Notes under the pieces: model-generated
The model's input: only the letters and a program-made list of their open reading frames with translations
What the model was told of the DNA's origin: nothing
Database searches by the model: none
Origin: an uncultured delta proteobacterium
GTDB taxonomy: Bacteria; Myxococcota_A; Polyangia; Polyangiales; Ga0077539
Direction of reading: 5' to 3'
DNA length: 61,583 nucleotides
Assembly: GCA_903845045.1 (NCBI GenBank)
Contig: CAIMWA010000683.1
Location: 1-61,583 of the forward strand
Shown: positions 26,431-47,170 of the stretch, one piece after another
Position numbering within the stretch: position 1 is the stretch's first letter
Layout: each line of letters starts with the position of its first letter
Position numbers and translations under genes: made by a program

Positions 26431-26546
26431 GGGGACACAGTTACGTTGTTGCATTCCGGTCCCGCGGGCCGGGCGCGGGGACACAGTTAAGTTCTTGCCT
26501 TACGTTCCCGCGACCTCGCTGAATGCAACAACGTAACTGTGTCCCC
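26431..26546. repeat. GGGGAC-23mer repeat locus A (copies +26431, +26477 degenerate, -26524)
   Basis: The outer copies form a perfect 26-bp inverted repeat (26431-26456 / 26521-26546); the middle copy has 3 mismatches. Confidence 0.95.
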
Positions 26547-27906
26547 ATCGACGTCCACGCCCGCGACGCTGACCCCGACGCTGCTCGGGACGGCAGCACT
26601 CGGCCTCGTAGTGGCCCTCGTCCGCCCCCGCGACCGCGACGCGCTGCGCGCCATGCTGCGCCCTCACGCCACCGAAGGCGCACCGTCGCCGCGCACACCG
26701 GGCGTCCCGACGATCACGCCCGCCCCGGAGCCCCCGCTCCCGCCACGTTGGACACCCGCGACGCACGCGGCGACGGCGCCGTTTCCGTTTCTCGCGAACC
26801 CGGTGCTCGCAGCGTCGACGGAGCACGCCCTCGACGCGTTCGCACGCCGGCTCTCGGCGGCGGCGGAGACACGACGCACGGTGCGGGTGCTGCACCTCGG
26901 CGACTCGCTCATCGCCGATGACCGCATCACCGGACGCCTGCGACGAAGGCTCCAGCACGAGTTCGGCGACGGCGGGCTCGGCATGGTGTTCCTGAGGCCG
27001 ACGGCGCGCTCGTATCACCCCGCGGGCGTGCGCTTCGACGCGCGGGGTTGGTACCCGGGGTCCGTGGTCGGTCCGCTTTGGGAGGACGGAGGCTACGGCG
27101 TCGGCGGCACGGGCTTCGAGGCCCCCGACGCAGGCCCGACGGCGACGCTCGACTTCGACCGTGGACGGCGCTTCGCCGTGCGCGCGCGACGCGACCCCGC
27201 CGGCGGTGCGCTTCGCCTGCGCCTCGACGAAGGTCCGTGGGTGACCGCACGTACCGACGGAGAGGTTCCCGTGCTCGTGGCCGACACCGACGGAGTCCAC
27301 AGCGTCACGGTGCGCGCGGCGGGCGGGCGCGTGCGCGTCTACGGCGTCGTGGCGCTGCGCGAGGGACCCGGCGTCACCGTCGAGAACCTCGGCACCGTCA
27401 GCAGCTCCGCGCAGGCGCTGCTCCACATCGACGAGGCGCACTGGACCGCGGCCCTCGCCGCCGAGGATCCTGCGCTGGTGATCCTTTCGCTCGGCACCAA
27501 CGAGGCGAGCCACGGCGCGCTCGGTCCCACGGCCCGCGAGGCGCTTCGGCGCGACACCGCGACGCTCTACCGCCGGGTGCGCGCGGCGCTGCCCCACGCG
27601 TCGTGCCTCGTCACCGCCCCGCCCGACGCCGCCGTCGTGCTCGAGGACGGGAGCGTCGCTCCGAGGCCCGCCCTCGCCGCCATCGTCGCCGCCGAGGCCG
27701 ACGGGGCGCGCGATGCGGGCTGCGCCTTCTTCGACACCCTCGCCTGGATGGGCGGCCACGGAAGCATCACGCGGTGGCAGCGCACGGGCCTCGCCGACGG
27801 CGACCTCACGCACCTCACCGACGCCGGCGGCGCACGGGTGGGCGACGTGCTCGCCGACGCGCTGCTACACGCCCGCGACGACGCCATGACCCGAGGTGCG
27901 CCGTGA
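26539..27906 (+). CDS. SGNH/GDSL-family protein (PatB/AlgJ-like O-acetyltransferase partner)
   Basis: HLGDSL, LGTNE and DLTH (DxxH) motifs; N-terminal TM. Start is uncertain because the GTG lies inside the repeat. Confidence 0.8.
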   Translation: MSPSTSTPATLTPTLLGTAALGLVVALVRPRDRDALRAMLRPHATEGAPSPRTPGVPTITPAPEPPLPPRWTPATHAATAPFPFLANPVLAASTEHALDAFARRLSAAAETRRTVRVLHLGDSLIADDRITGRLRRRLQHEFGDGGLGMVFLRPTARSYHPAGVRFDARGWYPGSVVGPLWEDGGYGVGGTGFEAPDAGPTATLDFDRGRRFAVRARRDPAGGALRLRLDEGPWVTARTDGEVPVLVADTDGVHSVTVRAAGGRVRVYGVVALREGPGVTVENLGTVSSSAQALLHIDEAHWTAALAAEDPALVILSLGTNEASHGALGPTAREALRRDTATLYRRVRAALPHASCLVTAPPDAAVVLEDGSVAPRPALAAIVAAEADGARDAGCAFFDTLAWMGGHGSITRWQRTGLADGDLTHLTDAGGARVGDVLADALLHARDDAMTRGAP

Positions 27907-29303
27907 CCGTCGCGCGCGCTCTCGCGCTGTGGGCCCTCGTCGCAGGGTGCGCTCCGCACCCGCTTCCGCTGGGCATCGGCGAGGCCGCGCCGCCGGGGCA
28001 AAACCGCAACCCGCATCCGCTGCCCACGCCCGCGCCCGAGGAGCCTGCGCCGCCCCCGGGACACGAGCCGCAGGAGCCGCTGCCGGACCGCCTCGACCTC
28101 ACCGTCGTGGGCGACGACGCGGGCCCCGCGCCGGCCGATGCTTCGACGCCGAACGATCCCGCGCCCGCGGCCTCCACGACGACCGCCGCGACGACGACGA
28201 CGACCGCTCTCGGACCGGTGTGGGAGGACCCGTCGGGCACCCTCGGCGAGGCGCTCGCGGCGTTTCGCGCGCACGGCCGCCCGCTGCGCGTGGTGCAGCT
28301 CGGCGACTCGCACACCGAGGGCGACGCCTTCACCGGACCGCTGCGCCGACGCCTCTGGGAGCGCCTCGGCGACGGCGGCCGCGGCTTCGTCCCGGTGGTC
28401 GGCGCGCAGCAGGACGTCGTGCGGATGTTGCGTGGTCCGTGGCGCGTCGTGCGGAGCGGCCTGCACACGGCGGGCGCCCCCAACGGCCTCGGCCTCGCGC
28501 GCGCCATCGCGACGCTGCCCGACGCGATGCTGCACGTCGCCACCTGCACGCGCTGCCCCGGCGGCCGCACCGCCGACCGCATCACCGTGCTCTACCGCCC
28601 GCGCGAAGCCGGCGGATCGCTGCGCATCGCCATCGACGGACACCCACCCGAGACCGTCTCCACCCGCACCGGCGGGAGCTTCGTGCGCGACGTCGCCGAC
28701 GGTCCGCATGCGGTGACGGTGCAGCCTGCGGGCGACGGGGCCGTGGAGCTCTACGGCGTGGCCCTCGATCGCGCGGGCGACGGTGCGCGCCTCGACGCCG
28801 CCGGCGTCATCGGGGCCCAGGCCTCGCACCTGCGCGCCGAGGACTGGTCCGTGCTCGGTGCGCAGCTCGCCGCGCGGGCGCCGACGCTGGTGCTGCTCGC
28901 CTTCGGAACCAACGAAGCCTTCGCGCCGCACCGCGACGCCGCCGAGGACGCGGCCTCCTTCGCCGCCCTCGTGCAGCAGGTGCGCGCGGCGGTGCCCGAC
29001 GCGACGGTGGCCCTGCTCGGAGCGCCCGACGGTGAGCGTCGCACCCCTGGCGCCGCAGGGATCTTCGCGCCGCCTCCGCGCCTCTCGGCGGTCATCGACG
29101 CCACGCGCTCCACGGCCGCCGCGGAGCACGCGCTCTTCGTCGACCTGCGCTCGGTGATGGGCGGCCCCGGCACCATCGGCGCGTGGACCCTCGAGCGTCC
29201 GCCGGCCGCCGAGCCCGACCACGTGCACCTCACCCCTCGCGGCTACGCGCGCCTCGCCGCCCGCCTCGTCGAGGGCCTCCTCGGACCCCGTCCCGCGCCG
29301 TGA
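27903..29303 (+). CDS. SGNH/GDSL-family lipoprotein (second PatB-like)
   Basis: Lipobox VAGC; QLGDSH, FGTNE and DHVH motifs; GTGA coupling. Confidence 0.8.
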   Translation: MTVARALALWALVAGCAPHPLPLGIGEAAPPGQNRNPHPLPTPAPEEPAPPPGHEPQEPLPDRLDLTVVGDDAGPAPADASTPNDPAPAASTTTAATTTTTALGPVWEDPSGTLGEALAAFRAHGRPLRVVQLGDSHTEGDAFTGPLRRRLWERLGDGGRGFVPVVGAQQDVVRMLRGPWRVVRSGLHTAGAPNGLGLARAIATLPDAMLHVATCTRCPGGRTADRITVLYRPREAGGSLRIAIDGHPPETVSTRTGGSFVRDVADGPHAVTVQPAGDGAVELYGVALDRAGDGARLDAAGVIGAQASHLRAEDWSVLGAQLAARAPTLVLLAFGTNEAFAPHRDAAEDAASFAALVQQVRAAVPDATVALLGAPDGERRTPGAAGIFAPPPRLSAVIDATRSTAAAEHALFVDLRSVMGGPGTIGAWTLERPPAAEPDHVHLTPRGYARLAARLVEGLLGPRPAP

Positions 29304-31162
29304 GCTTCGCCGACGGAGCATTTCCGCTCTTCCTGTGGGCGGCGGTGATGGTCTGCGTGCTGCTGCGGCGCGGTGCTTCGAGCGCCTTCACGCGCGTCGT
29401 CGGAGCCCTCGGCGTGGGCCTCCTCGCGGACCTCGCGTGGATCGTCGCGCTGCGTCCGCATACACCCCTGCGTACTCCCTGGGGCCTCGCGCTGCAGCGC
29501 CTCGGAGGGCCGCTCGCGCACCCCGTCTCGTGGGCGTGGGCGCTCATCGGCGCCGCTCTCTTCGCCGTCGGCATCGTCGCTGGACTTCGCGCGCACCCGT
29601 CGCCGTCGGAAGGGTCCCTCGTCGCCCGCGCCCGCGCGCTGGGCTGGACCACGCTCGCCGCGGTGCTGCTCTTCGTCGTCGCCGCGCGCACCCATCACCT
29701 CGACGTCGTCGCGTCGGCCATCGCGCGCACGGCGCACTTCGGCTGGGTGGCGCTCTGGGGCTTCGCCTGGGGCGCCGCGCAGCGACCCGACGGACGCCGC
29801 AGCGCCCTGCAATTGGGGCTCTTCGCGCTGAGCGCGCTGTTCTACCAATCGTGGGCGGCGACGATGCCCGGGGCGTACCGCTTCCTGCTCGGCGTGATCG
29901 TCGCGACGGTGGTGCTCGACTACTGGCTCGCCCGCGCCATCGACGCGCGCACCGAGCCCGCCCCGCGCCGCGCCATGCTCGTCGTGTCGCTCGTCGCGAA
30001 CCTCGGCATCCTCGGGGTGTTCAAGTACGCCGACTTCGCGGGCGCGAACCTCTTCGCGCTGGGCCGCCTCGCGGGCCTCGACCGATCGTTCATCCCCTGG
30101 CGCCTGGTGCTGCCCGCGGGGATCTCGTTCCACACGTTCCAGTCGCTCTCTTACACCGTCGACGTGTACCGGCGCCGGCTGCGACCGACGGCGTCGCTGC
30201 GCGCCTTCGCGACCTTCGTGCTGTTCTTTCCGCAGCTCGTGGCGGGGCCCATCGTGCGCGCCGACGCGTTCCTGCCGCAGATCACCGAGCCGCCCGCCAT
30301 CGACGAGGCGCGCGCCGCCGCGGGGCTGTGGCGCATCGCGCTGGGCCTCGCGAAGAAGCTCTGGCTCGCCGACACCCTCGCGCTCACCCTCGTCGACCGC
30401 ACCTTCGCGAACCCCGCGCAGTTCTCGGCCCTCGAGAACCTCCTCGGCGCGTACGGCTACGCCTTCCAGATCTACCTGGATTTCTCGGCCTACAGCGACA
30501 TCGCCGTGGGCGCCGCGGCGCTGCTCGGCTTCACGCTTCCCGAGAACTTCGACGCGCCGTACCGCTCCCGGGACCTCGCCGAGTTCTGGCACCGCTGGCA
30601 CATCTCGCTCAGCACCTGGCTGCGCGACTACCTGTACATCCCCCTCGGCGGCAACCGCGACGGCGAGGCGCGCACGTACCGCAACCTCGCCCTCACCATG
30701 CTCCTCGGCGGCCTCTGGCACGGCGCGTCCTGGACCTTCGTCGTCTGGGGCCTGCTCCACGGCGTCGGCCTCGGCGTGACCCGCTTCCTCCAACGCCGTC
30801 GGCAGCGCCTTGGACACACCCCTTCGCGCGGCGCCGCGGCGCTCGGCACGGTGCTCACGTTCCACGCCGTGGTGGCGGCCTGGGTGTTCTTTCGCGCGCC
30901 CGATTTCGCGACGGCGCAGGCGGTCTTCGCGCAGCTCGGAACGCTCGGAACGGACGTCGCCAACGTGCCGCGATCGTTCGTCGTGGCGATCCTCGTGGCG
31001 GCGGCTGCGCACGCGGTGCCATCGGCGTGGGAGCGCCGGGCGACGGAGTCCTTCGTGCGGGCGCCGTGGTGGCTCCGCGCGGCGGTGCTCGTCGGGGCGG
31101 GCGCGGCGGTGCGGACGCTGGCGCGGCCGGCGGCGGTGCCGTTCATCTACTTCCAATTCTAG
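29300..31162 (+). CDS. MBOAT O-acyltransferase (AlgI/PatA/DltB family) with extra N-terminal membrane region
   Basis: LPAGISFHTFQSLSY, FFPQLVAGPI, DFSAYSDIA, FWHRWHISLSTWLRDYLYIPLGG and GGLWHGA motifs. Confidence 0.9.
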   Translation: MSFADGAFPLFLWAAVMVCVLLRRGASSAFTRVVGALGVGLLADLAWIVALRPHTPLRTPWGLALQRLGGPLAHPVSWAWALIGAALFAVGIVAGLRAHPSPSEGSLVARARALGWTTLAAVLLFVVAARTHHLDVVASAIARTAHFGWVALWGFAWGAAQRPDGRRSALQLGLFALSALFYQSWAATMPGAYRFLLGVIVATVVLDYWLARAIDARTEPAPRRAMLVVSLVANLGILGVFKYADFAGANLFALGRLAGLDRSFIPWRLVLPAGISFHTFQSLSYTVDVYRRRLRPTASLRAFATFVLFFPQLVAGPIVRADAFLPQITEPPAIDEARAAAGLWRIALGLAKKLWLADTLALTLVDRTFANPAQFSALENLLGAYGYAFQIYLDFSAYSDIAVGAAALLGFTLPENFDAPYRSRDLAEFWHRWHISLSTWLRDYLYIPLGGNRDGEARTYRNLALTMLLGGLWHGASWTFVVWGLLHGVGLGVTRFLQRRRQRLGHTPSRGAAALGTVLTFHAVVAAWVFFRAPDFATAQAVFAQLGTLGTDVANVPRSFVVAILVAAAAHAVPSAWERRATESFVRAPWWLRAAVLVGAGAAVRTLARPAAVPFIYFQF

Positions 31163-31295
31163 GCCCCGGGAGCGTGCGGCGGCCGTGTCCGGGGGGCCTC
31201 GACGGGGCCTGATTTGACGCCGCCGGGGTTCGCGCCTAAACGCACCCCGCGCGGCTTCGCGCGCGCTTTCAGCCTCTGCTCCGAGGAGTGCAACG

Positions 31296-32267
31296 ATGGG
31301 TCTTTCGCGCACAGTCTCGAACGCCGACCGCCTGCGGGCGGCGGGCCAGTACCTGCACAATCGCGTCACCGGACGGCCGACGTCGCTGACGCTCGAGATC
31401 ACCAAGCGGTGCAACGCCACCTGCGACTTCTGCCCCTACTGGGAGGCCGACGAGGTCGAGGAGGTCAAGGACTGGACCCCGGTGATCCGGTACTTCCAGC
31501 CGTTGCAGGTGAGCATCACCGGCGGCGAGACGCTGCTCCGCAAGGACATCGTCGACGTGGTGCGGCAGGTGAAGGACGTGCCGGGCTTCCGGTACATCGG
31601 TCTGTACACGAACGGCTGGCTGCTCACCGAGAAGCTCGTCGCCGAGCTGACCGAGGCGGGCGTCAACCAGATCCAGATCTCGTGCAACTACCCCGACGAG
31701 CGGCAGGACACCGAGCGCGGACTGCCGGGGCTCTGGAAGAAGCTGTCGACGTTCATCCCGGAGATGACGGCGAAGGGCTACGACAACCTCTCCATCGGCA
31801 CGTTCCTCTGCGCCGAGAACCTCGACTGCGTGGTGGACCTCGCGAAGGTCGTGAAGAGCTGGGGCTGCAAGCACTCGTTCAACAGCTACTCGCGGCTGAA
31901 GAACGACAACCAGGAGCACGTGCTGCCCGTCGAGATGATCTCCAAGTCGCGCAAGGTCATCGAGGAGCTCATCAAGATCAAGCACGAGAACCGCAACTCG
32001 CTCACGTCGGACCAGTACCTCCGTACGATCCCGACGTTCTTCGAGGACGGCCAGCGCCCCGGCTGCATCGCCGGCGACAAGTTCCTGTACGTGGACCAGC
32101 AGGGGTACGTGAAGCAGTGCCCGGAGCTGCCGCCCATCGCCCACATCTCGAACCTGGAGAACGTCGAGCGCCAGCCCGTGTCGTGCGGGATGTGCTGGTA
32201 CGCGTGCCGCGGCGAGCACCAGACGAAGATCGACTACGCGCGCGTGAAGGAGCTGGTCGAGTCATGA
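31296..32267 (+). CDS. Radical SAM protein with C-terminal Cys cluster (Twitch/SPASM-like)
   Basis: CNATCDFC (CxxxCxxC), TGGE, TNG; C-terminal C-x13-C and CGMCWYAC. Confidence 0.9.
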   Translation: MGLSRTVSNADRLRAAGQYLHNRVTGRPTSLTLEITKRCNATCDFCPYWEADEVEEVKDWTPVIRYFQPLQVSITGGETLLRKDIVDVVRQVKDVPGFRYIGLYTNGWLLTEKLVAELTEAGVNQIQISCNYPDERQDTERGLPGLWKKLSTFIPEMTAKGYDNLSIGTFLCAENLDCVVDLAKVVKSWGCKHSFNSYSRLKNDNQEHVLPVEMISKSRKVIEELIKIKHENRNSLTSDQYLRTIPTFFEDGQRPGCIAGDKFLYVDQQGYVKQCPELPPIAHISNLENVERQPVSCGMCWYACRGEHQTKIDYARVKELVES

Positions 32268-33028
32268 AGACCTGGGTCACGAAGTACGACGAGGAGCTGC
32301 TCGCGAAGAGCAAGGAGCTCGTGAAGGGCGCCGAGGAGAACCCCACGTCGCGGGAGCTCCTCGGCCGCTACGAGTTCTCCGCGGAGGAGCTCGAGCGCGG
32401 TCGCAAGCTCATCGCGAACGTCGAGAAGAGCTTCGAGTGGGAGCGCAGCGGGCGCGCGTACAACTTCCTCTCGACGACGCCGGAGAAGCGCGTCGCCGAG
32501 GCGAAGCACTGGTACGCCGACACGCGCCGCCGCTGGGTGCGCGAGGCGTTCCGCCACGCCGAGGAGGACTCGGGCTGGGTGGGCTTTCGCCCCTCGTCGC
32601 AGTGGTCCCTCGAGCGCAAGCTCACCGAGGGCACCCGCATCGCCGTGAAGCACGCCGCGCGCGCGTTCAGCGTGAGCGCGTTCCTGGAGCACCGCGCGAA
32701 CCTCAAGCGCGACCTCGCCCTCGCGCTGCAGGACAAGCCCGCCGACGCCCCGCCGCCGAAGGACACGGCGCTCGTGGAGCTCGCGGGCTGGTACGAGCGG
32801 TGGCGCCTGCTGGTGCAGCGCGTGTTCCGCCAGCGCCCGGACCTCATGGCCCCCTTCGGGCTCACGCCCGGCAAGGCCCCGCCGCGGCTTCGTGGCAAGG
32901 GCGCGCAGAAGTACGGCGAGCGCGCCGCGGGATCGCTCCCGGTGCTGCAGACCAACGGCTGCGAGACGCACGTTGCCGACGAAGCCGACGACGACGACGA
33001 CGCGACCGCCGACGCCTCGGCGAACTGA
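32264..33028 (+). CDS. Hypothetical helical protein coupled to the radical SAM gene
   Basis: ATGA overlap; coding-like codon usage; acidic tail. No family recognised. Confidence 0.75.
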   Translation: MKTWVTKYDEELLAKSKELVKGAEENPTSRELLGRYEFSAEELERGRKLIANVEKSFEWERSGRAYNFLSTTPEKRVAEAKHWYADTRRRWVREAFRHAEEDSGWVGFRPSSQWSLERKLTEGTRIAVKHAARAFSVSAFLEHRANLKRDLALALQDKPADAPPPKDTALVELAGWYERWRLLVQRVFRQRPDLMAPFGLTPGKAPPRLRGKGAQKYGERAAGSLPVLQTNGCETHVADEADDDDDATADASAN

Positions 33029-33032
33029 CCCC

Positions 33033-34046
33033 GTGACCACCGCGCCCGACGCCGATCGCCCGGCGCTGCCGGGATGGCGAAAGCTCGCGCTGCGGGCGTC
33101 CCTCGGGCTCGTCGGCGGCGTGGCGGTGGCGGTGCTCGCCGGCTGGGCGCTGGGCGTGCATCCGCGCGAGGTGCTGCGCTCCCTCGAGGGCGTGCCGGCG
33201 TGGAGCGTGCTGTTCTGCGTGCTCTCGTCGTACGGGGTGCTGGGGTTCCAGGCGCTGCGGTGGCATCGCGTGATGGGGCCGCGGCTGGGGCTGAGCTACG
33301 CCGACGCGCTGCAGGCGCAGGTGGTGGGGTTCTTCTTCAACGCGTTCCTGCCGGCGCGCGGAGGCGACCTGCTGCGGGTGCAGTACCTCGGGCGGCGCAC
33401 CGGCAAGAGCCGCGCGACGATCCTCGGCACCGAGCTCGTGGACCGCTGGCTGGACTGGTGGGGCTGGATCCCGACGTTCATCGTGATGGCGCTGCTGAGC
33501 GACCCGCCGCGGTGGCTCTTCAAGGCCCTCGGCATCTTCGGCGCGCTGCTCGTCGCCTGGGGTCTCGCGATGGTGGTGCTCACCCGCAGCGGGCGCCTGG
33601 GCCGCGAGGACACCCGCTTCGGGCGCGCGATGACGGCGCTGCGCTCGGGCGTGCAGTCGTTCCGCGAGCCGCGCATCTGGGTGACGGCGCTCGTCATCGC
33701 GCCGCTGCCGTGGGTCTGGGAGGCGACGGCGATCACCATCGCGGGCCGCGCCTTCGGGCTGCACCTGTCGCTGGTGCAGTCGTTCAGCGTGATGATCGCG
33801 TTCAACCTCGCGATGATCGTCCCCACGCCGGGCGGCGTCGGGAGCCAGGAGTCGGGCGGCACCGCGGCGCTGGCCTTCTTCGGCTTCGACCACAGCCGCT
33901 CCCTCGCCTTCCTCTTCGTGTACCACTTCACGCAGCTGCTGCCGGGCATGGCGACGGGCGCGGCGCTGCTGCTCGCGCAGGGCGAGGTGCTCTTCGGCCG
34001 CGGACCGTCGGACACCGTGACGCCACCGCCCGCTCCCGAGCCCTGA
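33033..34046 (+). CDS. Lysylphosphatidylglycerol-synthase-TM / flippase-like membrane protein (UPF0104-like)
   Basis: 'LRWHRV', 'FFNAFLPARGGDLLR', 'VPTPGGVGSQE' motifs; about 8 TM. Confidence 0.8.
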   Translation: MTTAPDADRPALPGWRKLALRASLGLVGGVAVAVLAGWALGVHPREVLRSLEGVPAWSVLFCVLSSYGVLGFQALRWHRVMGPRLGLSYADALQAQVVGFFFNAFLPARGGDLLRVQYLGRRTGKSRATILGTELVDRWLDWWGWIPTFIVMALLSDPPRWLFKALGIFGALLVAWGLAMVVLTRSGRLGREDTRFGRAMTALRSGVQSFREPRIWVTALVIAPLPWVWEATAITIAGRAFGLHLSLVQSFSVMIAFNLAMIVPTPGGVGSQESGGTAALAFFGFDHSRSLAFLFVYHFTQLLPGMATGAALLLAQGEVLFGRGPSDTVTPPPAPEP

Positions 34047-34110
34047 ACCCCGCGCGTTGGCGCGCCGTGGCACAGATTTCCAGGCACACCCGTTGCTCCA
34101 GCCCGGGACC

Positions 34111-35040
34111 ATGGAAGCTCCCGCATCGCTCCGTCGCATGGTGTTCGTGGTTCTCGTCGGGACGGGCTGCGGCGCGTCGGTGTCCGTGGGCGGCCCCGAT
34201 GCGTCGGTGACCCCCGACGTGCCCTTGGCGACGGACGTTCCCGTACGCCCCGACGTCCCCGTGGCGACCGATGTGCCGGTTGCGCGCGACGTGCCCGTGG
34301 TGTCGTCCGATGCGCCTGCGACGTGCGACTGGGGCACGGCGTCGACGGTGCGCATCGCGCTGAGCGGTCCCGGGACGACGACGTACGACTGCTCGGGCCT
34401 GCCGGGCGGACCGGCGATGCCCCCGGCCGCGCTGCTCGATCGCCACGCCGCGGTCACGGCGGTCGTCGACGATGCCACGGGCAGCACCGTGTCGCTCGAC
34501 TTCTGCAGCCCCGCGGCGGACTGCATCGCGATGCCGGGCACGCTGCGCATCCAGGCCCGCGGCTTCACCCTCGGCGGCGGACCGCTCGCGCTGCGGCCAG
34601 GGCAGTTCCTTCGCATCCGGTCGCGGGTGCAGTGGTCCTTCGCGTGCTCGATGCAGGTCGAGGTGTCGAACGCGCCCACCTGGGACGGGGCCCCGAACCC
34701 GGTGCGCACCGACGCGTCGCTGCTGGCGGCGGCGTCGAGCGGCGAGGGCCACGCGCTCCCGTCGGCGCCCTTCGAGGTGGACCGCGCGCACATCGGCTGC
34801 GCCGAGCCCGGCCCGACGTGCAGCTCGGACCCGCGGGAACTCTACGCCCTGTCGTTCCAGGGGCACTGCAACACCTGCCTGCGCGACCCCGACCCGGTGA
34901 TCGTGCGTCAGGGCGGCGACGGTCTCATCGAGGCGGGCGGCCACCGCTACACGGCAACGAACCTCGAGTCGTACTCGTCGGGCTACTGCGACGACTACTG
35001 GAGCTGGGCGTGGACGGTGCGCGAGGCCTACCTCGACTGA
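34111..35040 (+). CDS. Cys-containing lipoprotein with DV/DA-rich linker
   Basis: GTGC lipobox-like, repeated TDVPV linker, about 10 Cys. Start may be 34138. Confidence 0.65.
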   Translation: MEAPASLRRMVFVVLVGTGCGASVSVGGPDASVTPDVPLATDVPVRPDVPVATDVPVARDVPVVSSDAPATCDWGTASTVRIALSGPGTTTYDCSGLPGGPAMPPAALLDRHAAVTAVVDDATGSTVSLDFCSPAADCIAMPGTLRIQARGFTLGGGPLALRPGQFLRIRSRVQWSFACSMQVEVSNAPTWDGAPNPVRTDASLLAAASSGEGHALPSAPFEVDRAHIGCAEPGPTCSSDPRELYALSFQGHCNTCLRDPDPVIVRQGGDGLIEAGGHRYTATNLESYSSGYCDDYWSWAWTVREAYLD

Positions 35041-35041
35041 T

Positions 35042-35319
35042 GCACCCGGGGACACAGTTACGTTGTTGCATTCAGCGCTGCGGCGCGACGAAACGCCGAT
35101 AGGCACCCGGGGACACAGTTACGTTGTTGCATTCAGCGCTGCGGCGCGACGAAACGCTGCAATTGCCGGGGATTCGGATGCGGCCGGCGCCAAGGGCAAC
35201 AAGGTAACTGTATCCCCGTTCACCTCGGGTGCCGACGACGACCGCGGCAGAAAGCTAGCTGTGTCCCCGTACGCATCCCCGTACGCACCGGCTGGATGCA
35301 ACAACGTAACTGTGTCCCC
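35042..35319. repeat. GGGGAC-23mer repeat locus B (+35048, +35109, -35195, -35246, -35297) with a 55-bp exact tandem duplication
   Basis: 35042-35096 is identical to 35103-35157 (61-bp period); three reverse copies have 3, 6 and 0 mismatches. Confidence 0.95.
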
Positions 35320-35373
35320 ATGGATGCAGGCCCTTGAACGGGCGCCCGCCGTCGTGGGATGCCTCCGGGCACC

Positions 35374-35679
35374 ATGAAGCGAGAGAAGCACCTCACCCGT
35401 CGCGAGCGTCAGGCCCTCAACGGAGGCCCCCGCGGCCCGAACCCGTCGGCGCGGAGCAGCACGCTCCAGCCCGGGGCGCACATCCACTGCGTCGCCTGCG
35501 GAAAGCACCTGCACACCGTCGGCGAAGCCGAGACCGGACCGCGAACGTGGAGCGACGTGAAGTGCGCCCATGGGAGCGTGTTCCAGGCATGCACGAGCTG
35601 CGTCGGGCAGGCTCGGGTGCTCCTCGACGACCACGACCGCACCGGCCAGGCCGTGCGCGCCGCCGCCGCCTGGCACTGA
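35374..35679 (+). CDS. Small putative zinc-binding protein
   Basis: Basic N-terminus; CVAC...CAH...CTSC...H arrangement. Confidence 0.7.
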   Translation: MKREKHLTRRERQALNGGPRGPNPSARSSTLQPGAHIHCVACGKHLHTVGEAETGPRTWSDVKCAHGSVFQACTSCVGQARVLLDDHDRTGQAVRAAAAWH

Positions 35680-35811
35680 AAAAGCGCTCCCCCTTTCTCC
35701 CTGATTGACGTATGCTTCTACGTAGTTCCGCCTCGCCGCGCTTCGCGCGAGCCCGATGGAGCACTTCGGACGATGGATGGTGTGCGATGCGCATGCTGAG
35801 GAGCGCAATCC

Positions 35812-39992: not shown

Positions 39993-40172
39993 CGCCGCTC
40001 AGCCGCGCAGGCGGCGGCGCAGGCGATCGCGCTCGGAGTCGAGCCCCGCGAGCTGCGCTCCGGTGCCCACGAACGCGCGAAACACCGCGAGCGCTAAGGC
40101 CACGGTCCTCGGTAGTCGTACGAGAACGCGCGGCCGGGGCCGTCGCAGCTGGGTCTGGGGGCGGGCCCGCGC

Positions 40173-41387
40173 TCACCCCCGCCACAGCCCGTGCACGTGC
40201 AGCACGCTGCGCTCCGCCGGAACGCCGATGCGCAGCGGAAATCCGTAGTGCCCCGTGCCCCGATGCACGTACAGCCGTGACCGCCCCAGCGCCCAAGGAC
40301 CGTGGTCCGGCACCTTGGAGAGCGCCGACACCACGGTGCCCTTCAAGCCGAGGCGCAGCAGCCCGAGCTGGCCGCCGTGCGTGTGTCCCGAGAGCACGAG
40401 CTCCGCGCTGCCCTCGGGAAGGTGCTTGAACGCGCCCGGGTCGTGCAGCATCGCGATGCGAGGAACACCCGCATTGCGCGGAAAGCGCTGGGTCACTTCG
40501 CGAAGGTGCCGCGGGCGATCGCGCCACACGAAATCGAGCCCGAGGATCTCCACCGCGCCCGCCGGCGTGTCGGCCACCGCGAGGTCGTCGACGAGCAGCG
40601 TCACGCCCGCCGCCGCGAGCCCCGCGCGCACCGTGTCGAGGGCCTCGTGGTCGTGGTTTCCGAGGCACGCGTAGCAGCGCCCCGGCAGGCTCTTCAACGG
40701 AGCGAGGGCCGCCGTGAGCCACGCCGGGTCGCGCTGCGACTCCATGGTGAGAAGATCACCGGTGAGCAGCACGAGGTCGGGGTCGCGGGCCACGGCGCGC
40801 GCGCAGATGGCGTGCAGCCCCGCCACCGACATGAACGGTCCGAGGTGCGGATCGGTGATCTGCAGCACGCGCAGCGGACGCTCGTCGCGCGCGCCCTCGA
40901 CGTGGTGGCGGCGCAGCGCCGGCACCGTCGCGCCGTCGAGGAAGAGGTCGCGCTCGTCCTCGGCGGCCCAGAGCGAGTCGACGAGGCCCGCGACGGCGAC
41001 GGCGAAGGGGATCCACGCGCCCCACGGGTGAAAGCCGAGGCCCCGCGCGACGCTCCACGGCACCGACAGGAACACCGCCGCGCCGAACCACGAGCCCGGG
41101 ATGCTCACCAGCGTGCGGTAGAGCGGTCCGCGCAGCGTGGGGCGGGCGAGCATGGCGTAGTGCACGAACACCACGGCCTGCAGGTAGGCGAAGAGCGGCC
41201 AGAGCGAGCCCGACAGCGGCGCGAGGCTCCGCGACGACGCGACGTGGATGCCCAGCAGCACGCTGAGGAACATCGCGAAGGGGCGCCCGCGCACGGTGTA
41301 CGCGAGGAGCACGACGGCGACCCAGCCGACGAGGCTTCCGACGGTCAGCGCCGTCGTCGGAACGGGGGGCAGATGCATGGCCGGCAA
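40173..41387 (-). CDS. Membrane-anchored calcineurin-like metallophosphoesterase (YkuE/YaeI-like)
   Basis: DPHLG, GDLL, GNHDH and GHTHGGQ motifs; N-terminal TMs. Start may be 41378. Confidence 0.88.
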   Translation of the reverse strand: MPAMHLPPVPTTALTVGSLVGWVAVVLLAYTVRGRPFAMFLSVLLGIHVASSRSLAPLSGSLWPLFAYLQAVVFVHYAMLARPTLRGPLYRTLVSIPGSWFGAAVFLSVPWSVARGLGFHPWGAWIPFAVAVAGLVDSLWAAEDERDLFLDGATVPALRRHHVEGARDERPLRVLQITDPHLGPFMSVAGLHAICARAVARDPDLVLLTGDLLTMESQRDPAWLTAALAPLKSLPGRCYACLGNHDHEALDTVRAGLAAAGVTLLVDDLAVADTPAGAVEILGLDFVWRDRPRHLREVTQRFPRNAGVPRIAMLHDPGAFKHLPEGSAELVLSGHTHGGQLGLLRLGLKGTVVSALSKVPDHGPWALGRSRLYVHRGTGHYGFPLRIGVPAERSVLHVHGLWRG

Positions 41388-41424
41388 CCATAGCCAGCGA
41401 AGCAGGTTTCGTCCCGTGACGGCG

Positions 41425-43074
41425 TCACGAAGCGTCGCAGAGCCCGAGCATGGCGAGGCCCGGCGGGGCCGTTCCGTGCGGTCCTTCGTGGCACACCGGG
41501 GCGACGGTGGAGCGGGCCTCGGCGTCGCGGCCGCGCTGCATCAGCACCTGCGCGAGCAGCGTGCGAACGGCCACCTCGAGGCGGCGGTCGGTGAACTGCG
41601 TCTGCAGCACGCGGGTCTCGGCGAGGGCGGCGCGAAGATCTTCCTCCGCCCCCGTGGCGTTGCCGGCGTCGAGGCGCCGCGTGGCGCGCACGTAGCGGGC
41701 CCGCGGGTCCCGGGGATAGCGGCGCACCAGGTCGTCGACGGACTCCATCGCCGCCTCGCCGGCAGCCGCGCGCTCGACCTGCTCCTGCGGGGCCAGGGCC
41801 GTGAGCGCCGTGCGTGCCTGTGCGACGCCCGACACGCCCCAGGCGAGCATCAACGCCCCGGCCACCACTACCGCCTTCGCGAGCAAAGCGCCCCGGGGGA
41901 GCGGGCTCGTGCGATCCCAGGTCTTCCAGAGCGCGAGGCCCGCGAGGGCGCCGACGACGGCACCGCCGAAGTGCGCCGCGTAGTCGACGTGGGCCCCCGT
42001 CGCCGACGCCAGCGGAAGCAGCGACGGAACGAGCACCCGCGCCATGGCACCCTGCACGTTCGTGCGCGCCGCGCCCTCGGGCAGGCGCATGGCCGCGACG
42101 AGCGTCGCCGCGAGGAGCCCCATGATGGCCCCCGACGCGCCCACGCTCACCACCGAGGGACCGTTGAGCAGCAGTCCCATGGCCGATCCGCCGAGGGCGC
42201 CGAGGACGAAGAGCGCTGCGAGCCAAGCCCGCCCGACGAGCCGCTCGAGCACGGCGCCGGCCATGTACAGCGCGAGGCCGTTCATGAGCAGGTGCACCGG
42301 CGATCCGTGGAGCAGCGCCGCGGTGAGCATGCGCCAGCCCTCGTGGTCGCGGAGCACGGCGTCGCGCGTGAGGGCGCCGAGGGAGAGCACGGTGCCGAGG
42401 TCCGGCGAGTAGCTCGAGGAGGCGGCGGGGCGTGCCGCGAGCTCGCCGACGAACACCGCCGCGAGCGCCGCGAGAATGCCCACGGTGAGCAGCGGACGCG
42501 TCACCGACGCATCGCCCGCGGGGACGCCCTCGGCGGCGGCGAGGTCCTCGTCGGCGACGCGGGGCGACGAGAGCACCGAGCGCAGCCAACGCTTTCCGGG
42601 GTGCTGGGCCTGGAGCCAGCGGGCGGTGGTCCACACGCGCTGCGACGCATCGGCGGCGGCGGGGTCGAGCACCCACCCGGTCACGCCGACGCGGGCGACG
42701 CCGGTCGGTCGATGCAGCGCCGAGAGCGCCTCGCGCCGCGATGCCGACGCCTGGGCGTTCACGTGCCAGAGCTGGATGCCGACGGGCAGCCGCGCTCCGT
42801 TGTACGTCGGCGCGTAGCGCGAGCACGCGGCGCCGAGGCTCACGAGCTGCGCCTGGGTGAGCGCGAAGGGGCGCGCGCAGGCGCCGTCGCGGCGGTCGTG
42901 ATCGACGATTGCGATCATCACGAAGCCCGTGCCGTTGTCGAGCGTGAGCAGCCGGTCGACGGCGGCGGCGAGCGGCGCGGCCTCGGGAACGTGGCCCTCG
43001 ACGAAGCCCTTCTGCGCGACGAGGCGGCGCACGAGGTACGCCGCGAGCGGTTCGTTCTCGGGAGGGGCCGCCAT
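41425..43074 (-). CDS. Rhomboid intramembrane serine protease with extra N- and C-terminal domains
   Basis: WRMLTAALLHG..HLLMN, GASG (Ser) and AHFGG (His) motifs. Confidence 0.85.
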   Translation of the reverse strand: MAAPPENEPLAAYLVRRLVAQKGFVEGHVPEAAPLAAAVDRLLTLDNGTGFVMIAIVDHDRRDGACARPFALTQAQLVSLGAACSRYAPTYNGARLPVGIQLWHVNAQASASRREALSALHRPTGVARVGVTGWVLDPAAADASQRVWTTARWLQAQHPGKRWLRSVLSSPRVADEDLAAAEGVPAGDASVTRPLLTVGILAALAAVFVGELAARPAASSSYSPDLGTVLSLGALTRDAVLRDHEGWRMLTAALLHGSPVHLLMNGLALYMAGAVLERLVGRAWLAALFVLGALGGSAMGLLLNGPSVVSVGASGAIMGLLAATLVAAMRLPEGAARTNVQGAMARVLVPSLLPLASATGAHVDYAAHFGGAVVGALAGLALWKTWDRTSPLPRGALLAKAVVVAGALMLAWGVSGVAQARTALTALAPQEQVERAAAGEAAMESVDDLVRRYPRDPRARYVRATRRLDAGNATGAEEDLRAALAETRVLQTQFTDRRLEVAVRTLLAQVLMQRGRDAEARSTVAPVCHEGPHGTAPPGLAMLGLCDAS

Positions 43075-43096
43075 GGGGGCGCGGACTCTACCTCAT

Positions 43097-43307
43097 GGGG
43101 ACACAGTTACGTTGTTGCACTCCCGGGGGCTCTCCCCGGGGACACAGTTACGTTGTTGCATCCACTGCCCGGCGCGGTCGGCCGATGGACCGCGCGCGCT
43201 CCGGTGCCGACGCGGGCCCCGCGCACCGATCGTGGTCGCGGGGAGTGCAACAATGTAACTGTGTCCCCGGTGCGCGGCCGCGAACGCAACAACGTAACAC
43301 TGTCCCC
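43097..43307. repeat. GGGGAC-23mer repeat locus C (+43097, +43138, -43246, -43285)
   Basis: Two exact forward copies and two reverse copies (1 and 3 mismatches) fill the divergent rhomboid/kinase intergenic region. Confidence 0.95.
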
Positions 43308-43334
43308 GTGACCCCCTCGACCCTCCCGGAGACG

Positions 43335-44345
43335 ATGCTGCGCCTGCGACGCACGCTGCTTCTAGCGGCCATCGTGCCGTGCGTGGCGGCGGTGCCCGGC
43401 GCGCTGCATCGTCCGTGGGCCCTCGCGTTGGCCGCGCTGGGAGCGATCGCCGCCGTCGCCCTCGCGGAGCAGCTTCGACGCGCCCTCGCCGCGGAGACCG
43501 ACGGGGCCGCGCAACGGCTCCGCGCCCTCGCCCGCGACACCCCCGCGGAGCCCCGCGACGGGGGCGCCTTCGACCGCGCCGTCGATGCCTGGAGCGCCCG
43601 CTTCGCCGAGGAGCGCACCCGGCACCGCGACGCCCTCGCGAGACTCGAGGAGACCGAGCGCCGCCGCGAGGCGTGGCTCAGCACCCTGCGTCACGAGCTG
43701 CGCACGCCGCTCAACGCCATCGTGGGGTTCACCGAGCTGCTCTCCGCCGAGGTCGAGGGCCCCCTCACCGACGCCCAGCGCGAGGACGTCGGCACCATCG
43801 CCAGCGCCAGCGCCCACCTGCGCCGCCTCGTCGAGGACGTCTTCGACCTGTCGGCGATGACCACCGGGACGTTTCCCATCACCCGCGCGCGCACCGACGT
43901 GGCCGCCGTGGTGCGCGACGTCGTGCGCGAGGCGACGGGACTCGCCCGCACCCGCAACGTCACGCTGCACGCCGACACGCCCGCCGAGGCCGTCGCCTGG
44001 GTCGACCCCGTCGCCGTGCGCCGCGCCCTCACGAACCTCGTCGTGAACGCCATCGAGCACGCCGGCGGCGCCGTCGACGTCACCCTCTCCGTCAGCCCCG
44101 CGACGCTCACCGTCGCCGTGCGCGACAACGGTCCAGGCATCGCGCCGGGCGAGCTGCGGCGGCTGTTTCGCCCCTTCGAGCGCGGACGCACCGCCGAGGC
44201 CCGCGGCGCCGGGCTCGGCCTCGCCATCACCCTCGGCCTCGTCGAGGTCCACGGCGGAACGCTCTCGGCGCAGCCCAACGCCGACCGCGGAAGCACCTTC
44301 AGCGTCACCCTTCCCGCGGGCATGGTCCCCCTCGAGGCGCCGTGA
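43335..44345 (+). CDS. Membrane sensor histidine kinase
   Basis: H-box RHELRTPL, N-box NLVVNA, G1 DNGPGI, F-box LFRPF, G2 GLGLAI. Confidence 0.88.
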   Translation: MLRLRRTLLLAAIVPCVAAVPGALHRPWALALAALGAIAAVALAEQLRRALAAETDGAAQRLRALARDTPAEPRDGGAFDRAVDAWSARFAEERTRHRDALARLEETERRREAWLSTLRHELRTPLNAIVGFTELLSAEVEGPLTDAQREDVGTIASASAHLRRLVEDVFDLSAMTTGTFPITRARTDVAAVVRDVVREATGLARTRNVTLHADTPAEAVAWVDPVAVRRALTNLVVNAIEHAGGAVDVTLSVSPATLTVAVRDNGPGIAPGELRRLFRPFERGRTAEARGAGLGLAITLGLVEVHGGTLSAQPNADRGSTFSVTLPAGMVPLEAP

Positions 44346-45343
44346 CGGCCCCGACGCGTTCGCTCCCGTGGCGCTGCGCCCTCGCCCTCGCACTTCCGTG
44401 GGCCCTCGCCGGCGCCGCCGCCTTCGCCCACGCACCGGCCGTCGGCGCCCTCGCAGGACTGCTCCTCGGCGCAGCCCTCGGTGCGGTGCTCGGAACGCGG
44501 CTGCGCGACGACCTCGCCGAGCGCGCGACGGCCCTCGGTGCCGGCGCGGGCGGGCGCGGCGACGACCTCGGCGCGGCCCTCGACGAGGCGGCGGCTGCGA
44601 TGGCCGCGATGAAGGCCGACCAGCGCCGCGCCATCACCACGCGGCTCGAAGGGGCACGGCTCCGGGCGTTCGTCCTCGCGGGCGTGAGCCATGATCTCCG
44701 CGGTCCGCTCAACAGCCTCGTGGGGTTCACGGAGATCCTGCGCGAAGGGGTCGATGGTCCGCTCACCGAGGCGCAGGCCGAGAGCGTCGAGGCGCTGGCC
44801 CGCGGGGGGCGCGCGCTGCTCCGGCGCGTCGACGACCTGCTCGACGCCGCCCGCCTCGACGCCGGACGCATGACCCTCGACCGCGTCACCGTGCCGCTGC
44901 GCGAGCTCCTCGAGGCCGCCCGCGCCGTGGCCCTCGAGCGCCTCGGCGACACGCTCCCGGACCCCGACGGCGTGCGCATCGACGGAGCCCTCGACGGAAC
45001 CCTCGTCGCCGACCGCGCGCGCATGGCCCAGGCCCTCGGCGCCGTGCTCGCCTTCGCCCGCACCGCCGCCCCGGACCGCGCCCGCGCCGAGGTGCGCCGC
45101 GACCCGACGGGACAGCCCGTGCTCACCGTGTCCATCCCCGGCACCGCCGCCCTGCGCGCGTGGCTCGAGGACCCCTTGGAGGTCCCCCCGGCGGGCGTGC
45201 GCGCACCCGTCGGTCTCGGCCTCGCGGTGAGCGTCGCGCGGCGCATCCTCGCTCTCCACGGCGGAGCCCTCGACACCGGCGAGGCCGCCGACGGACACCT
45301 CACCCTGCGCGCGCGCCTCGGCGGCGACGCCCCCACGACCTGA
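44342..45343 (+). CDS. Histidine-kinase-like protein with intact H-box but degenerate ATPase domain
   Basis: SHDLRGPLNS is intact. The N-box Asn is absent (AQALGAVLAFA), there is no DxGxG, and G2 GLGL is retained. GTGA-coupled. Confidence 0.75.
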   Translation: MTAPTRSLPWRCALALALPWALAGAAAFAHAPAVGALAGLLLGAALGAVLGTRLRDDLAERATALGAGAGGRGDDLGAALDEAAAAMAAMKADQRRAITTRLEGARLRAFVLAGVSHDLRGPLNSLVGFTEILREGVDGPLTEAQAESVEALARGGRALLRRVDDLLDAARLDAGRMTLDRVTVPLRELLEAARAVALERLGDTLPDPDGVRIDGALDGTLVADRARMAQALGAVLAFARTAAPDRARAEVRRDPTGQPVLTVSIPGTAALRAWLEDPLEVPPAGVRAPVGLGLAVSVARRILALHGGALDTGEAADGHLTLRARLGGDAPTT

Positions 45344-45349
45344 GCCCGC

Positions 45350-46249
45350 TCAGCGCGGCGCCGCGTCGTACGCGCAGCGAAAGCCCAGGTTCGTGAACGA
45401 CGACCGCGGAAGGTTGTGCCCGCGGTACCAGAGCCCGAAGCCGTCGCACGTTCCGTGGCCGCACCACCACGAGCCGCCGCGCACCACGCGATACACGGCG
45501 CCCGCGCTCGCCCCGGCGTCGATGCCTCGCGCGGCAGCGGCGTAGGCGTCGCGGCGGTAGGCGTCGGAGGTCCATTGCCACACGTTGCCCACGGCGTCGT
45601 AGAAGCCCCAGGCGTTGGGTGCGAAGGCGCGCACCGGCGACACGTAGACCCAGCCGTCGGCACGGTCGTTGTGCGCGTGGCTCGCGCCCTGCCAGAAGTT
45701 CAGCCGCGGACGACCCTGCGCGTCCATCGGCGACGCGCCCCACGGAAAGCGCGTCCCGGCGGAGCCCGCGCGCATCGCGTACTCCCACTCGGCCTCGGTG
45801 GGCAGCCGTCCGTGGCTCCACGCGCAGTACGCCACGGCGTCGTCGAAGGAGACGAGCACCACCGGCGCGTCGTCGCGGAGAAAGGTCCGCGTGTCGTCGT
45901 TCTCCACGCCGAAGGGGCGGCGCCACGACGCGTGCGGCTCGCGCTGCCACGCCCAGTCCTCGAAGCCCTCGTAGGAGACCGTTCCGTAGCGCGTGCGCTC
46001 GGCCTCGGTGACGTGCCCCGTCGCCGTCACGAAGCGCCCGAAGGCGCCGCGCGTCACCAGCGTCGCGTCGAGGCAGAACGCCCCCACCGACACATGGTGC
46101 ACAGGACCTTCGTCGGGGCGGGAGCTCCCGGCGTGACCTTGCTCGAAGGTGCCCGCGGCGAGGCAGCGCACGTCGTCGCGCGGGGACTGTGCCGACGCCG
46201 TCGCCGACGCCAGCAGCACCGCCGCGGCGATCGCGAACGGTGGCTTCAT
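45350..46249 (-). CDS. Formylglycine-generating enzyme (FGE/SUMF1) family protein
   Basis: PVVLVSFDDA.AYC.W..GRLPTEAEWEYA, PNAWG.YD..GNVWQW and RGGSWWCGHGTC motifs; signal peptide. Confidence 0.85.
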   Translation of the reverse strand: MKPPFAIAAAVLLASATASAQSPRDDVRCLAAGTFEQGHAGSSRPDEGPVHHVSVGAFCLDATLVTRGAFGRFVTATGHVTEAERTRYGTVSYEGFEDWAWQREPHASWRRPFGVENDDTRTFLRDDAPVVLVSFDDAVAYCAWSHGRLPTEAEWEYAMRAGSAGTRFPWGASPMDAQGRPRLNFWQGASHAHNDRADGWVYVSPVRAFAPNAWGFYDAVGNVWQWTSDAYRRDAYAAAARGIDAGASAGAVYRVVRGGSWWCGHGTCDGFGLWYRGHNLPRSSFTNLGFRCAYDAAPR

Positions 46250-47055
46250 CGATCCGTCGTGGTCGACGCGTCGCCGGGTCCCGCGTCGCTCCCGTCATCC
46301 GCCGACCCCTCGCCGGGCAGCGACGGACCGTCTTCCCCAGAGGTCATGCACAGCGCCTGCTCGTCCTCGGAGCAGTGCCCGCGGCGCCCCATGCAGTTCA
46401 TCGTGCACGCGTCGGAGTCGGCGTTGCGGCACGCGACGTGGCATCGACGGCACCACCCGAGGCAATGGTCGGCGCGGTACCGGCGCACGAGGGCCGCGTT
46501 GCACGCGTTCGTGCGCGCCATGCAGCCGGCCGACAGGCAGCGGTCCTTGGCGGCGACGGCGTCGTCGAGGCATGCGGCCTCGGAGCGCGCGCACGCGAGG
46601 CGGCACACGTCCGTCGTGCACGTCGACGCGCACGTCACCGCGGCGGAGCGGCACCGCGTCTCGCCCGCATCGCAGGTGTGCATGCACGCCGTGCGGCACG
46701 GAAGGTCCCGCGTGAAGCACGGGTCCGGCTCGCACGACTGCGGGTCCACGTCGCCCGCGCAGCCGTAGATGTTCGCGGGCATCTCGTCGGGGTCGCGTTG
46801 CGCGAAGCTCCACGCGGGGCTGCGCACGAGCTCCCGGAGCACCGGCTCGTCGCGGTACGCCGCCGCGTTCTCGAGGGTCATCGGCACGTCGTCGTCGTCG
46901 ACCCCCGCGTCCGTCGACACCGCGGGCGCGGGCGACACCGAGGCGTCCATGACGGCGACGGGTCGCGGGGCGGCGGCGGGGCTCTGCGGGGCGCGCGGCG
47001 TGCGGCACCCGAGGAGCGCCATGAGCAACACGAACTTCGGCGAAGGCTTCGACAT
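46246..47055 (-). CDS. Cys-rich helical lipoprotein
   Basis: Lipobox LLGC; many CxxxC pairs; acidic tail; ATGA-coupled to the FGE gene. Confidence 0.65.
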   Translation of the reverse strand: MSKPSPKFVLLMALLGCRTPRAPQSPAAAPRPVAVMDASVSPAPAVSTDAGVDDDDVPMTLENAAAYRDEPVLRELVRSPAWSFAQRDPDEMPANIYGCAGDVDPQSCEPDPCFTRDLPCRTACMHTCDAGETRCRSAAVTCASTCTTDVCRLACARSEAACLDDAVAAKDRCLSAGCMARTNACNAALVRRYRADHCLGWCRRCHVACRNADSDACTMNCMGRRGHCSEDEQALCMTSGEDGPSLPGEGSADDGSDAGPGDASTTTDR

Positions 47056-47147
47056 CTCGGGCTCAGGGCTCCCTCGGGGCGTCGGCCCCGCGAACGCGGC
47101 GGTTCTCGCACGCAGGGCGCGGTCCGCAAACGGCGTCCGGGCGTGAG

Positions 47148-47170
47148 TGCAACAACGTAACTCTGTCCCC
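47148..47170 (-). repeat. GGGGAC-23mer repeat locus D (single copy, 1 mismatch)
   Basis: TGCAACAACGTAACTCTGTCCCC in the divergent intergenic region. Confidence 0.9.

Follow-up and report, generated by a model that had tools for sequence, protein, structure and literature searches.

Some genes resembling those of REP-associated tyrosine transposases (RAYTs) have lengthy terminal inverted repeats (TIRs) on their flanks instead of repetitive extragenic palindromes (REPs). Such genes have been named TIRYTs and the units they form TIRtrons (Di Nocera, De Gregorio & Rocco 2013, BMC Genomics 14:522, PMC3733652). Many TIRs have the motif GGGGWSAS in common, and some constitute "moderately abundant" dispersed families that occur as dimers or clusters (PMC3733652). 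Here we describe a high-copy member of this class, comprising a dispersed repeat family (F1) and the Y1 transposase gene that it brackets on contig C60 of an uncultured myxobacterium. F1 copies occur at four loci (A to D) in a window of 61,583 nt, the whole of contig C683 (CAIMWA010000683.1) in a 7.66-Mb metagenome-assembled genome (MAG) of 685 contigs (genome G000).

As in the described TIRtrons (PMC3733652), a RAYT-like Y1 gene lies between long, inverted, non-REP repeats with GGGGWSAS at their outer end (the F1 head, GGGGACAC, is an exact fit), gene-less copies are scattered singly or in dimers and clusters, and several TIRYT genes with different TIRs occupy one genome. Unlike those TIRtrons, F1 resides in an uncultured myxobacterium, reaches at least 193 copies beside sister families of ~46-80 and 68 arms, and places at least two direct arms at each end of the C60 gene. 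A sequence-only reading of the window had called the family undescribed and had held that a match to a known class would speak against this. The sequence family itself is new; at class level there is such a match, because the TIRYT/TIRtron kind is published (PMC3733652; PMC6006769).

Of the 26 TIRYTs, 20 were placed in TnpA-Y1 subclass 2.1 by Quentin et al. (2018, PMC6006769). Members of this subclass have C-terminal Bac_DnaA_C/helix-turn-helix (HTH) domains; the subclass is probably equivalent to TIRYT and corresponds to RAYT Group 1 of Bertels (PMC6006769). Two large surveys gave these enzymes few or no repeat partners: subclass 2.1 had no REP-like partner, and the 16-mers flanking Group 1 genes average ~12 occurrences per replicon (Bertels et al. 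2017, PMC5581495), in contrast to the 147 occurrences of an F1 flanking 14-mer here. By architecture and motifs, the C60 protein (P0001) is assigned to subclass 2.1.2 (PMC6006769) and thus to RAYT Group 1 (PMC5581495). Shared features are the HUH and Y-x3-NP motifs, the long protein, the Bac_DnaA_C-type HTH, the low copy number, and the presence of divergent paralogues in one genome. In F1, repeats at high copy number are cleanly linked to Group 1/subclass 2.1 enzymes. Both a cognate enzyme and a class in the literature are now assigned to the family, which is useful as a model for this enzyme group.

The REP doublet (REPIN)-RAYT systems of Pseudomonas and Enterobacteria (RAYT Groups 2 and 3; Bertels & Rainey 2011, PMC3116915) resemble F1 in their inverted pairs, long hairpins, copy numbers in the hundreds, and species specificity, in the link between a family and the single-copy Y1 gene that it flanks, and in having several orthogonal pairs per genome. 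F1 has the REPIN arrangement of two inverted repeats and a spacer that form a hairpin, in a family flanking a single-copy RAYT gene. Unlike REPINs, it has a non-palindromic unit, no GTAG tag, and spacers that are barely conserved among copies; its enzyme is a member of a different RAYT group, with an additional HTH domain. The REPs and bacterial interspersed mosaic elements (BIMEs) of E. coli and their transposase TnpA_REP (4ER8; Messing et al. 2012, PMC3479197) likewise combine a conserved tag with structured DNA. Unlike F1, these REPs are imperfect palindromes of 20-40 nt tagged GTAG, and TnpA_REP is without a DnaA-like domain. Classification of F1 as a classical REP/BIME was rejected on the non-palindromic unit and the lack of a GTAG/CGTC tag. 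IS200/IS605 elements (IS608, ISDra2) resemble the F1 system in the Y1 HUH fold, in the single-strand chemistry proposed for it, and in the absence of target duplication. They differ in being multi-copy autonomous elements whose ends are asymmetric and carry sub-terminal hairpins, in place of terminal inverted repeats.

The F1 family and its cognate gene

Alignment of all copies in the assembly yields a 27-nt F1 unit, YGGGGACACAGTTACGTTGTTGCATTC. The 23-bp repeat of the sequence-only reading is real, and the conserved unit is longer, with a pyrimidine before GGGG and TTC after GCA. The consensus contains neither GTAG nor CGTC and is not self-complementary. The genome-wide count that had been proposed earlier gives at least 193 dispersed copies at up to 4 mismatches, of which 120 are exact, on 67 contigs. 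Positions 1-6, 11-12, 16-17, and 19-22 are virtually invariant among 189 aligned copies. Specifically, GGGGA and the TGC at positions 20-22, which had been noted as constant in the window, are kept in all window copies and in 189/189 genome copies. The count is a lower bound because copies are enriched at contig ends: 22/193 lie within 150 nt of an end, a zone that makes up 2.7% of the genome (~four-fold enrichment). F1 arms are among the reasons why the assembly of this MAG is broken.

F1 arms form 103 clusters, including 39 singlets and 34 "+-" pairs; the remainder are "++-", "+--", "++--", "++", and "--". Adjacent "+-" pairs (n = 58) have a modal gap of 24-26 nt, and in about half the gap measures 23-26 nt. 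The sole "-+" pair with a distance below 2994 nt is part of a tandem "+-+-", so that the GGGG ends point outward in every case. Among arm pairs within 1.5 kb, "+...-" was found four times, "--" once, and "-+" never. Neighboring arms are regularly phased at ~46-50 bp centre-to-centre in every orientation class. An inverted pair forms a stem of at least 26 bp with a mean fold of -47.6 kcal/mol. The lone unit has an RNA minimum free energy of -2.9 kcal/mol and no meaningful hairpin, in agreement with the earlier statement that the unit has no internal hairpin.

On a rough gene map, only 6/103 clusters fall inside open reading frames (ORFs), and several of those six are degenerate matches. Intergenic clusters lie between co-directional genes 21 times, convergent genes 9 times, and divergent genes 9 times, where ~2:1:1 is expected without preference. 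The median cluster start is 13 nt past the upstream stop codon. In 53 complete clusters, direct matches of 1-5 bp that could mark a target-site duplication are about as frequent as expected by chance. In many "++" and "--" pairs the 10-27 nt beside each arm are duplicated too, as in the 61-bp unit at 35048/35109 of the window, so that local tandem duplication also contributes to array growth. The variants TTAACTTG, ACAGTG, and TTCTTGC recur in arms at many loci, and arms have therefore been copied from variant masters.

Four "+ ... -" pairs in the assembly have their arms 0.6-1.3 kb apart. One of these, C60:16630-17923, has the order "+ + ORF - -" with four perfect F1 arms. The ORF (C60:16801-17814) is single-copy and encodes P0001, a protein of 337 aa. 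The sequence-only reading had suggested searching for a RAYT/TnpA(Y1) gene with the motif on its flanks, and this search succeeded here.

The assignment of P0001 as a Y1 transposase rests on its homologues, invariant motifs, and predicted fold; a single-sequence search of the PDB returned only noise. We identified 97 homologues in the protein collection, several of them named "REP element-mobilizing transposase RayT" by JGI. In an alignment of 28 homologues, H60 and H62 of the HUH motif, Y118, and H120-N-N-P-V-R125 are invariant. Together these residues make up the class-2 signature, with HUH (H60-V-H62) and Y-x3-NP (Y118-VHN-N122-P123). Pfam matches were found to PF01797 (Y1_Tnp) in 15/28 homologues and to PF08299 (Bac_DnaA_C) in 13/28, and the family profile matches DnaA domain IV in the PDB. 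The AlphaFold (AF2) model of P0001 has a pLDDT of 92.5. Its top structural match, in the catalytic domain, is 4ER8, E. coli TnpA_REP with a REP hairpin (TM 0.73, 163 columns), followed by ISDra2 TnpA and IS608 TnpA. At the C-terminus the model resembles 3PVP, the DNA-binding domain of DnaA (TM 0.81), consistent with a DnaA-domain-IV-like HTH. Mean pairwise identity among the 28 homologues is 47% in the catalytic domain and 27% in the HTH.

The C60 gene and its four arms occupy the same dnaJ-adjacent site in 9/9 independent metagenome contigs from two sample series. The gene behaves as a single-copy resident, not as a multi-copy insertion sequence. As a separate observation, three ordinary-looking genes are, like the transposase gene, bracketed by outward F1 arms in the arrangement "+(+) gene -(-)". 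These encode a phosphoribosyltransferase (PF00156; C479:14649-15535), an AlkZ-like DNA glycosylase (PF06224; C432:7359-8767), and an unknown membrane protein (C171:13635-14318).

Sister families and distribution among relatives

P0001 has five paralogues in the same genome, at 42-51% identity. The gene at C126:3000-4001 (51% identical) is flanked on each side by a ~130-nt inverted pair of a second family, F2 (GGGGACGGTTTCAACAAGTTGCCATTCC), in a bracketed locus spanning C126:2810-4139. F2 14-mers have up to 80 occurrences, and the family has ~46-80 arms. A third family, F3 (AGGGACGGGGGTAGGAAAGTAGG), flanks the paralogue at C628:7062-8027 (44% identical; bracketed locus C628:6909-8357). F3 has 68 arms and 28 "+-" clusters, with an arm gap of 94-97 nt in 26/30 pairs. 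F1, F2, and F3 all begin with GGGAC. A further paralogue, at C576:5894-6442, has an in-frame TAG and an F2-like arm fragment, GAAACCGTCCCC, ~70 nt upstream; it is probably a pseudogene. No repeat was detected at the paralogue on C486, a 2-kb contig.

The same architecture recurs outside this genome. In six other Myxococcota genomes of the same order, seven homologous genes are each enclosed by 1-3 forward and 1-3 reverse repeats, which start with GGGGACG and continue into an AT-richer tail that differs per genome. Three orthogonal enzyme-repeat pairs thus occur in one genome, and the arrangement is found at seven loci elsewhere. We also observed gene-less dispersed inverted pairs of their own TIRYT repeats in G022 (on many contigs) and in G016, of the same family, for example CGGGGACGGTCCTCAATAACTCAACTATT-loop-AATAGTTGAGTTATTGAGGACCGTCCCCG. 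The arms of these pairs are near-perfect and the 5-10-nt loop is different in every copy, the same contrast as in F1.

F1 itself is species-specific. No copies were found in 8 congeners and 32 further relatives, and all 8 congeners are without a gene of the C60 type. The exact F1 word is absent from one genome each of 185,579 species, and a degenerate F1 pattern gave three isolated, unrelated matches.

The assembly also encodes two classical Y1 transposases with PF01797 matches, at C384:10339-10677 (L002, E = 5e-16) and C439:770-1108 (L003, E = 2e-15). They have shared G+C-rich flanks on both sides, for example CGCGAACGTACCGGCCGCGGACGGCCGGGCCT and CTGCCGGGCGTGAGCGC, with ~23-33 occurrences in the genome. 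Together with their flanks, these genes may form a separate REP/RAYT or IS200-type system.

Proposed mechanism and competing explanations

We consider it probable that the 23-mer is the core of a 27-nt TIR and that the window copies are non-autonomous descendants of the C60 TIRtron ends, served in trans. The earlier idea of a REPIN/MITE-like (miniature inverted-repeat transposable element) family served by a Y1/RAYT-type transposase was essentially right, with the gene located on C60. We infer that this enzyme remains able to move the repeats, and likewise its cleavage position and the assignment of its domains to parts of the repeat. The ~190 gene-less F1 copies would derive from TIRtron ends, as singlets, inverted pairs, and "++ --" shells, and the C60 TIRYT would act in trans on their arms. 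Its N-terminal HUH/Tyr nuclease domain may recognize and cut single-stranded DNA at the outward GGGGAC head, which would stand in for the GTAG tag found in classical REPs. The C-terminal DnaA-domain-IV-like HTH could read the family-specific, AT-richer tail as duplex, available either in B-DNA or in the 26-bp stem extruded by an inverted pair. Such a reaction would leave no target-site duplication, as in IS200/IS605 and the RAYT lineage. The multiple arms per end, at ~46-50 bp centre-to-centre, could serve as multiple binding sites, as in other transposon ends, and the arrays may extend further by local tandem duplication. The conserved head and variable tail of the repeats, set beside the conserved catalytic domain and variable HTH of the enzymes, provide a direct, testable recognition hypothesis.

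Several observations weigh against a family descended from TIRtron ends and served by P0001. P0001 alone matches nothing in Pfam, even at E<=10, and its match to the NCBIfam model REP_Tyr_transpos ("REP-associated tyrosine transposase"; E=9e-6) scores 25.6 bits against a cut-off of 80. Quentin et al. (PMC6006769) questioned whether the HTH reads repeats at all, and we found no experimental assay of a TIRYT in PMC3733652 or PMC6006769. The nine metagenome contigs of the C60 locus differ by 2-4 bases in 4 kb and are nearly clonal, so they offer no polymorphism. No pre-insertion site could be reconstructed by empty-site comparison, as congeners have ~71% nucleotide identity in the flanks and locus B is not syntenic. 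A REPIN unit predicts conserved spacers, whereas F1 arms are off consensus at ~3% of positions and the spacers are close to random. Finally, almost none of the 16 longer interiors (56-340 nt) is related to another of them or to the interior of the TIRtron.

The spacers do retain a weak trace of common ancestry, TTCRCGGC...GCCGYGAA; their mean edit distance is 8.0, versus 9.1 +/- 0.1 in shuffles (30 distinct short pairs). The outward-facing orientation rule also holds for the 16 longer interiors. F3 shows the same contrast of perfect arms and diverged spacers, with spacers that are recognizably homologous in subsets. Three readings fit near-perfect arms: they may be individually constrained by binding, they may be homogenized by conversion, or the arm rather than the pair may be the unit installed. 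Three candidate explanations were tried and set aside. An origin of the "++ --" shells by internal deletion of a TIRtron was rejected, as only 1/16 interiors (C131, z = 5.7) has a weak match to the TIRtron 5' inner region and the others have none. Fold-back origin of the pairs was rejected because the self-complementarity of the spacer core does not exceed that of shuffles. Apparent "joints" at locus B in the four lake-metagenome runs that contain it arise from cross-mapping of other genomic copies onto the arms and are not excision products.

Of the alternatives still open, the most interesting is a domesticated array, in which each immobile arm is individually retained as a high-affinity site for the TIRYT's DnaA-like HTH or a host protein, with a host-level role such as chromosome organization, replication-fork targeting, or supercoil management. 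The near-perfect arms beside randomized spacers and interiors would fit this, as they imply constraint per arm and not recent copying of whole elements. So would the ~46-50 bp phasing in all orientation classes, the multi-arm ends conserved at homologous genes of other genomes, and the fixation of the single-copy C60 gene at one locus. We nevertheless regard such an array as unlikely, since recurrent variant arms (TTAACTTG, ACAGTG) imply replicative spread from variant masters, and F1 is species-specific, with all congeners lacking both repeat and gene. The array concerns present function only and is compatible with a TIRYT origin. Transcribed hairpins that end or stabilize upstream mRNAs are a still weaker candidate, which we judge quite improbable. 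Pairs fold at about -48 kcal/mol, clusters start close behind stop codons (a median of 13 nt, and 7 nt at locus B), and REPs are similarly placed relative to upstream stop codons (Di Nocera et al., PMC3733652). However, the base after the pairs is G or A and no T-run follows 3', Rfam contains no family that matches F1, and perfect singlets exist that cannot fold. Nine clusters, including locus C, lie between divergent genes where there is no 3' end, and the bracketing of a transposase gene would be left unexplained. A hairpin role in RNA is possible as a side effect of F1 pairs.

The inverted-repeat geometry, outward ends, and short gene-less copies would also be expected of a MITE derived from an ordinary DDE insertion sequence that shares its ends with the C60 locus, and the fragmentation into 685 contigs could hide a DDE element at contig ends. 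We give this very little credence. There is no 1-5 bp target-site duplication beyond chance, none of the three other F1-bracketed genes is a transposase, and the three paralogue-repeat pairs here and the seven elsewhere all involve the same Y1 family. Scarcely credible is an operator for a transcription factor of one regulon, although a non-palindromic 23-27-nt unit in intergenic inverted pairs would be of the right kind. An operator accounts poorly for 120 identical copies, for their absence from 40 relatives, for flanking genes that are functionally unrelated, and for the lack of enrichment in divergent or promoter regions; the centre-to-centre spacing of arms, 47-49 bp, is also far wider than in dimeric operators. 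The sequence-only reading had offered a nucleoid or regulator binding site as a second possibility. As the primary explanation this is not sustained, given the absence from 40 relatives and 185,579 species genomes, the lack of promoter preference, and the bracketing of a transposase gene. Two other candidates were rejected. A sigma-54 promoter reading of the TTGCA tail was set aside because, judged by eye, the -24 element is absent, and a CRISPR-like array is contradicted by the limit of three direct copies and by the inverted ones that always come after them.

Beyond the probable TIRtron descent of F1, we tentatively raise a broader possibility, which we ourselves think doubtful. The arm, not the inverted pair, would be the unit that is propagated and maintained, and it would carry a two-part code for subclass-2.1/TIRYT enzymes, with a universal GGGGAC head for the HUH domain and a family-specific tail of 15-20 nt, in duplex form, for the rapidly evolving DnaA-like HTH. 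Around arbitrary DNA, whole host genes included, these enzymes would put in place or maintain arms that face outward in a fixed geometry and are phased at ~48 bp. If so, the largest RAYT group, so far regarded as being without REP partners, would act generally as a builder of orthogonal arrays of protein-DNA sites. It could also constitute a gene-bracketing (cassette-forming) system, unlike IS608 and the classical REPINs.

F1 copies in the window

A search of the window with GGGGACACAGTTACGTTGTTGCA gave 12 matches at up to 3 mismatches, all at coordinates reported by the sequence-only reading, versus none in dinucleotide-preserving shuffles (maximum 0, n=100). A looser search recovered a thirteenth, degenerate copy with 6 mismatches, GGGGACACAGCTAGCTTTCTGCC, at 35246-35268 (-). 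The total of 13 copies, 7 exact and 6 variant (1, 1, 3, 3, 3, and 6 mismatches), is that of the earlier count, at the same positions. The orientations are likewise reproduced (A, + + -; B, + + - - -; C, + + - -; D, -), with forward copies always first. Loci were placed relative to genes by codon-position G+C and Pfam matches, and all four are intergenic or at gene boundaries, as had been claimed. No Y1 transposase maps to this contig, in line with the previous failure to see a transposase in the window. The 23-nt unit is 52% G+C (12/23), as first described, and is conspicuous because the window is 72-75% G+C (the genome is 72.5%).

Locus A separates a DsbA/thioredoxin gene from a GDSL lipase gene. 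Its outer left arm at 26431..26453 (+) and right arm at 26524..26546 (-) are exact. The arm between them at 26477..26499 (+) has 3 mismatches and forms an inverted pair with the 26524 copy across a 24-nt spacer.

Locus B follows a gene of unknown function, and its first arm begins 7 nt 3' of that gene's stop codon. The two forward arms, at 35048..35070 and 35109..35131 (both + and exact), are units 1 and 2 of the 61-bp local tandem duplication. They are followed on the minus strand by an arm with 3 mismatches at 35195..35217, by the degenerate arm at 35246..35268, which retains GGGGACACAG and TGC, and by the exact outer right arm at 35297..35319. A 106-aa ORF comes after locus B, and an exact-protein look-up of it gave no match.

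Locus C separates divergent rhomboid and histidine-kinase genes. Its outer left and inner left arms, at 43097..43119 and 43138..43160 (both +), are exact. The inner right arm at 43246..43268 (-) has 1 mismatch, and the outer right arm at 43285..43307 (-) has 3 mismatches and is the recurrent "AGTG" variant. Locus D is a singlet at 47148..47170 (-) with 1 mismatch, just upstream of a MoxR AAA+ gene.

The sister family F2 is also represented in the window, by a single complete inverted pair at 17043-17174 (CGGGGACGGTTTCAACAAGTTGCCATTCCGGTGAGACCGGAATTC ... GGAATTCCGGTGACACCGGAACATTGAATTGTTGAAACCGTCCCCG). Its F2 identity accounts for the 132-bp palindromic element at this position, and the repeats explain several "odd palindromes" in the genome.

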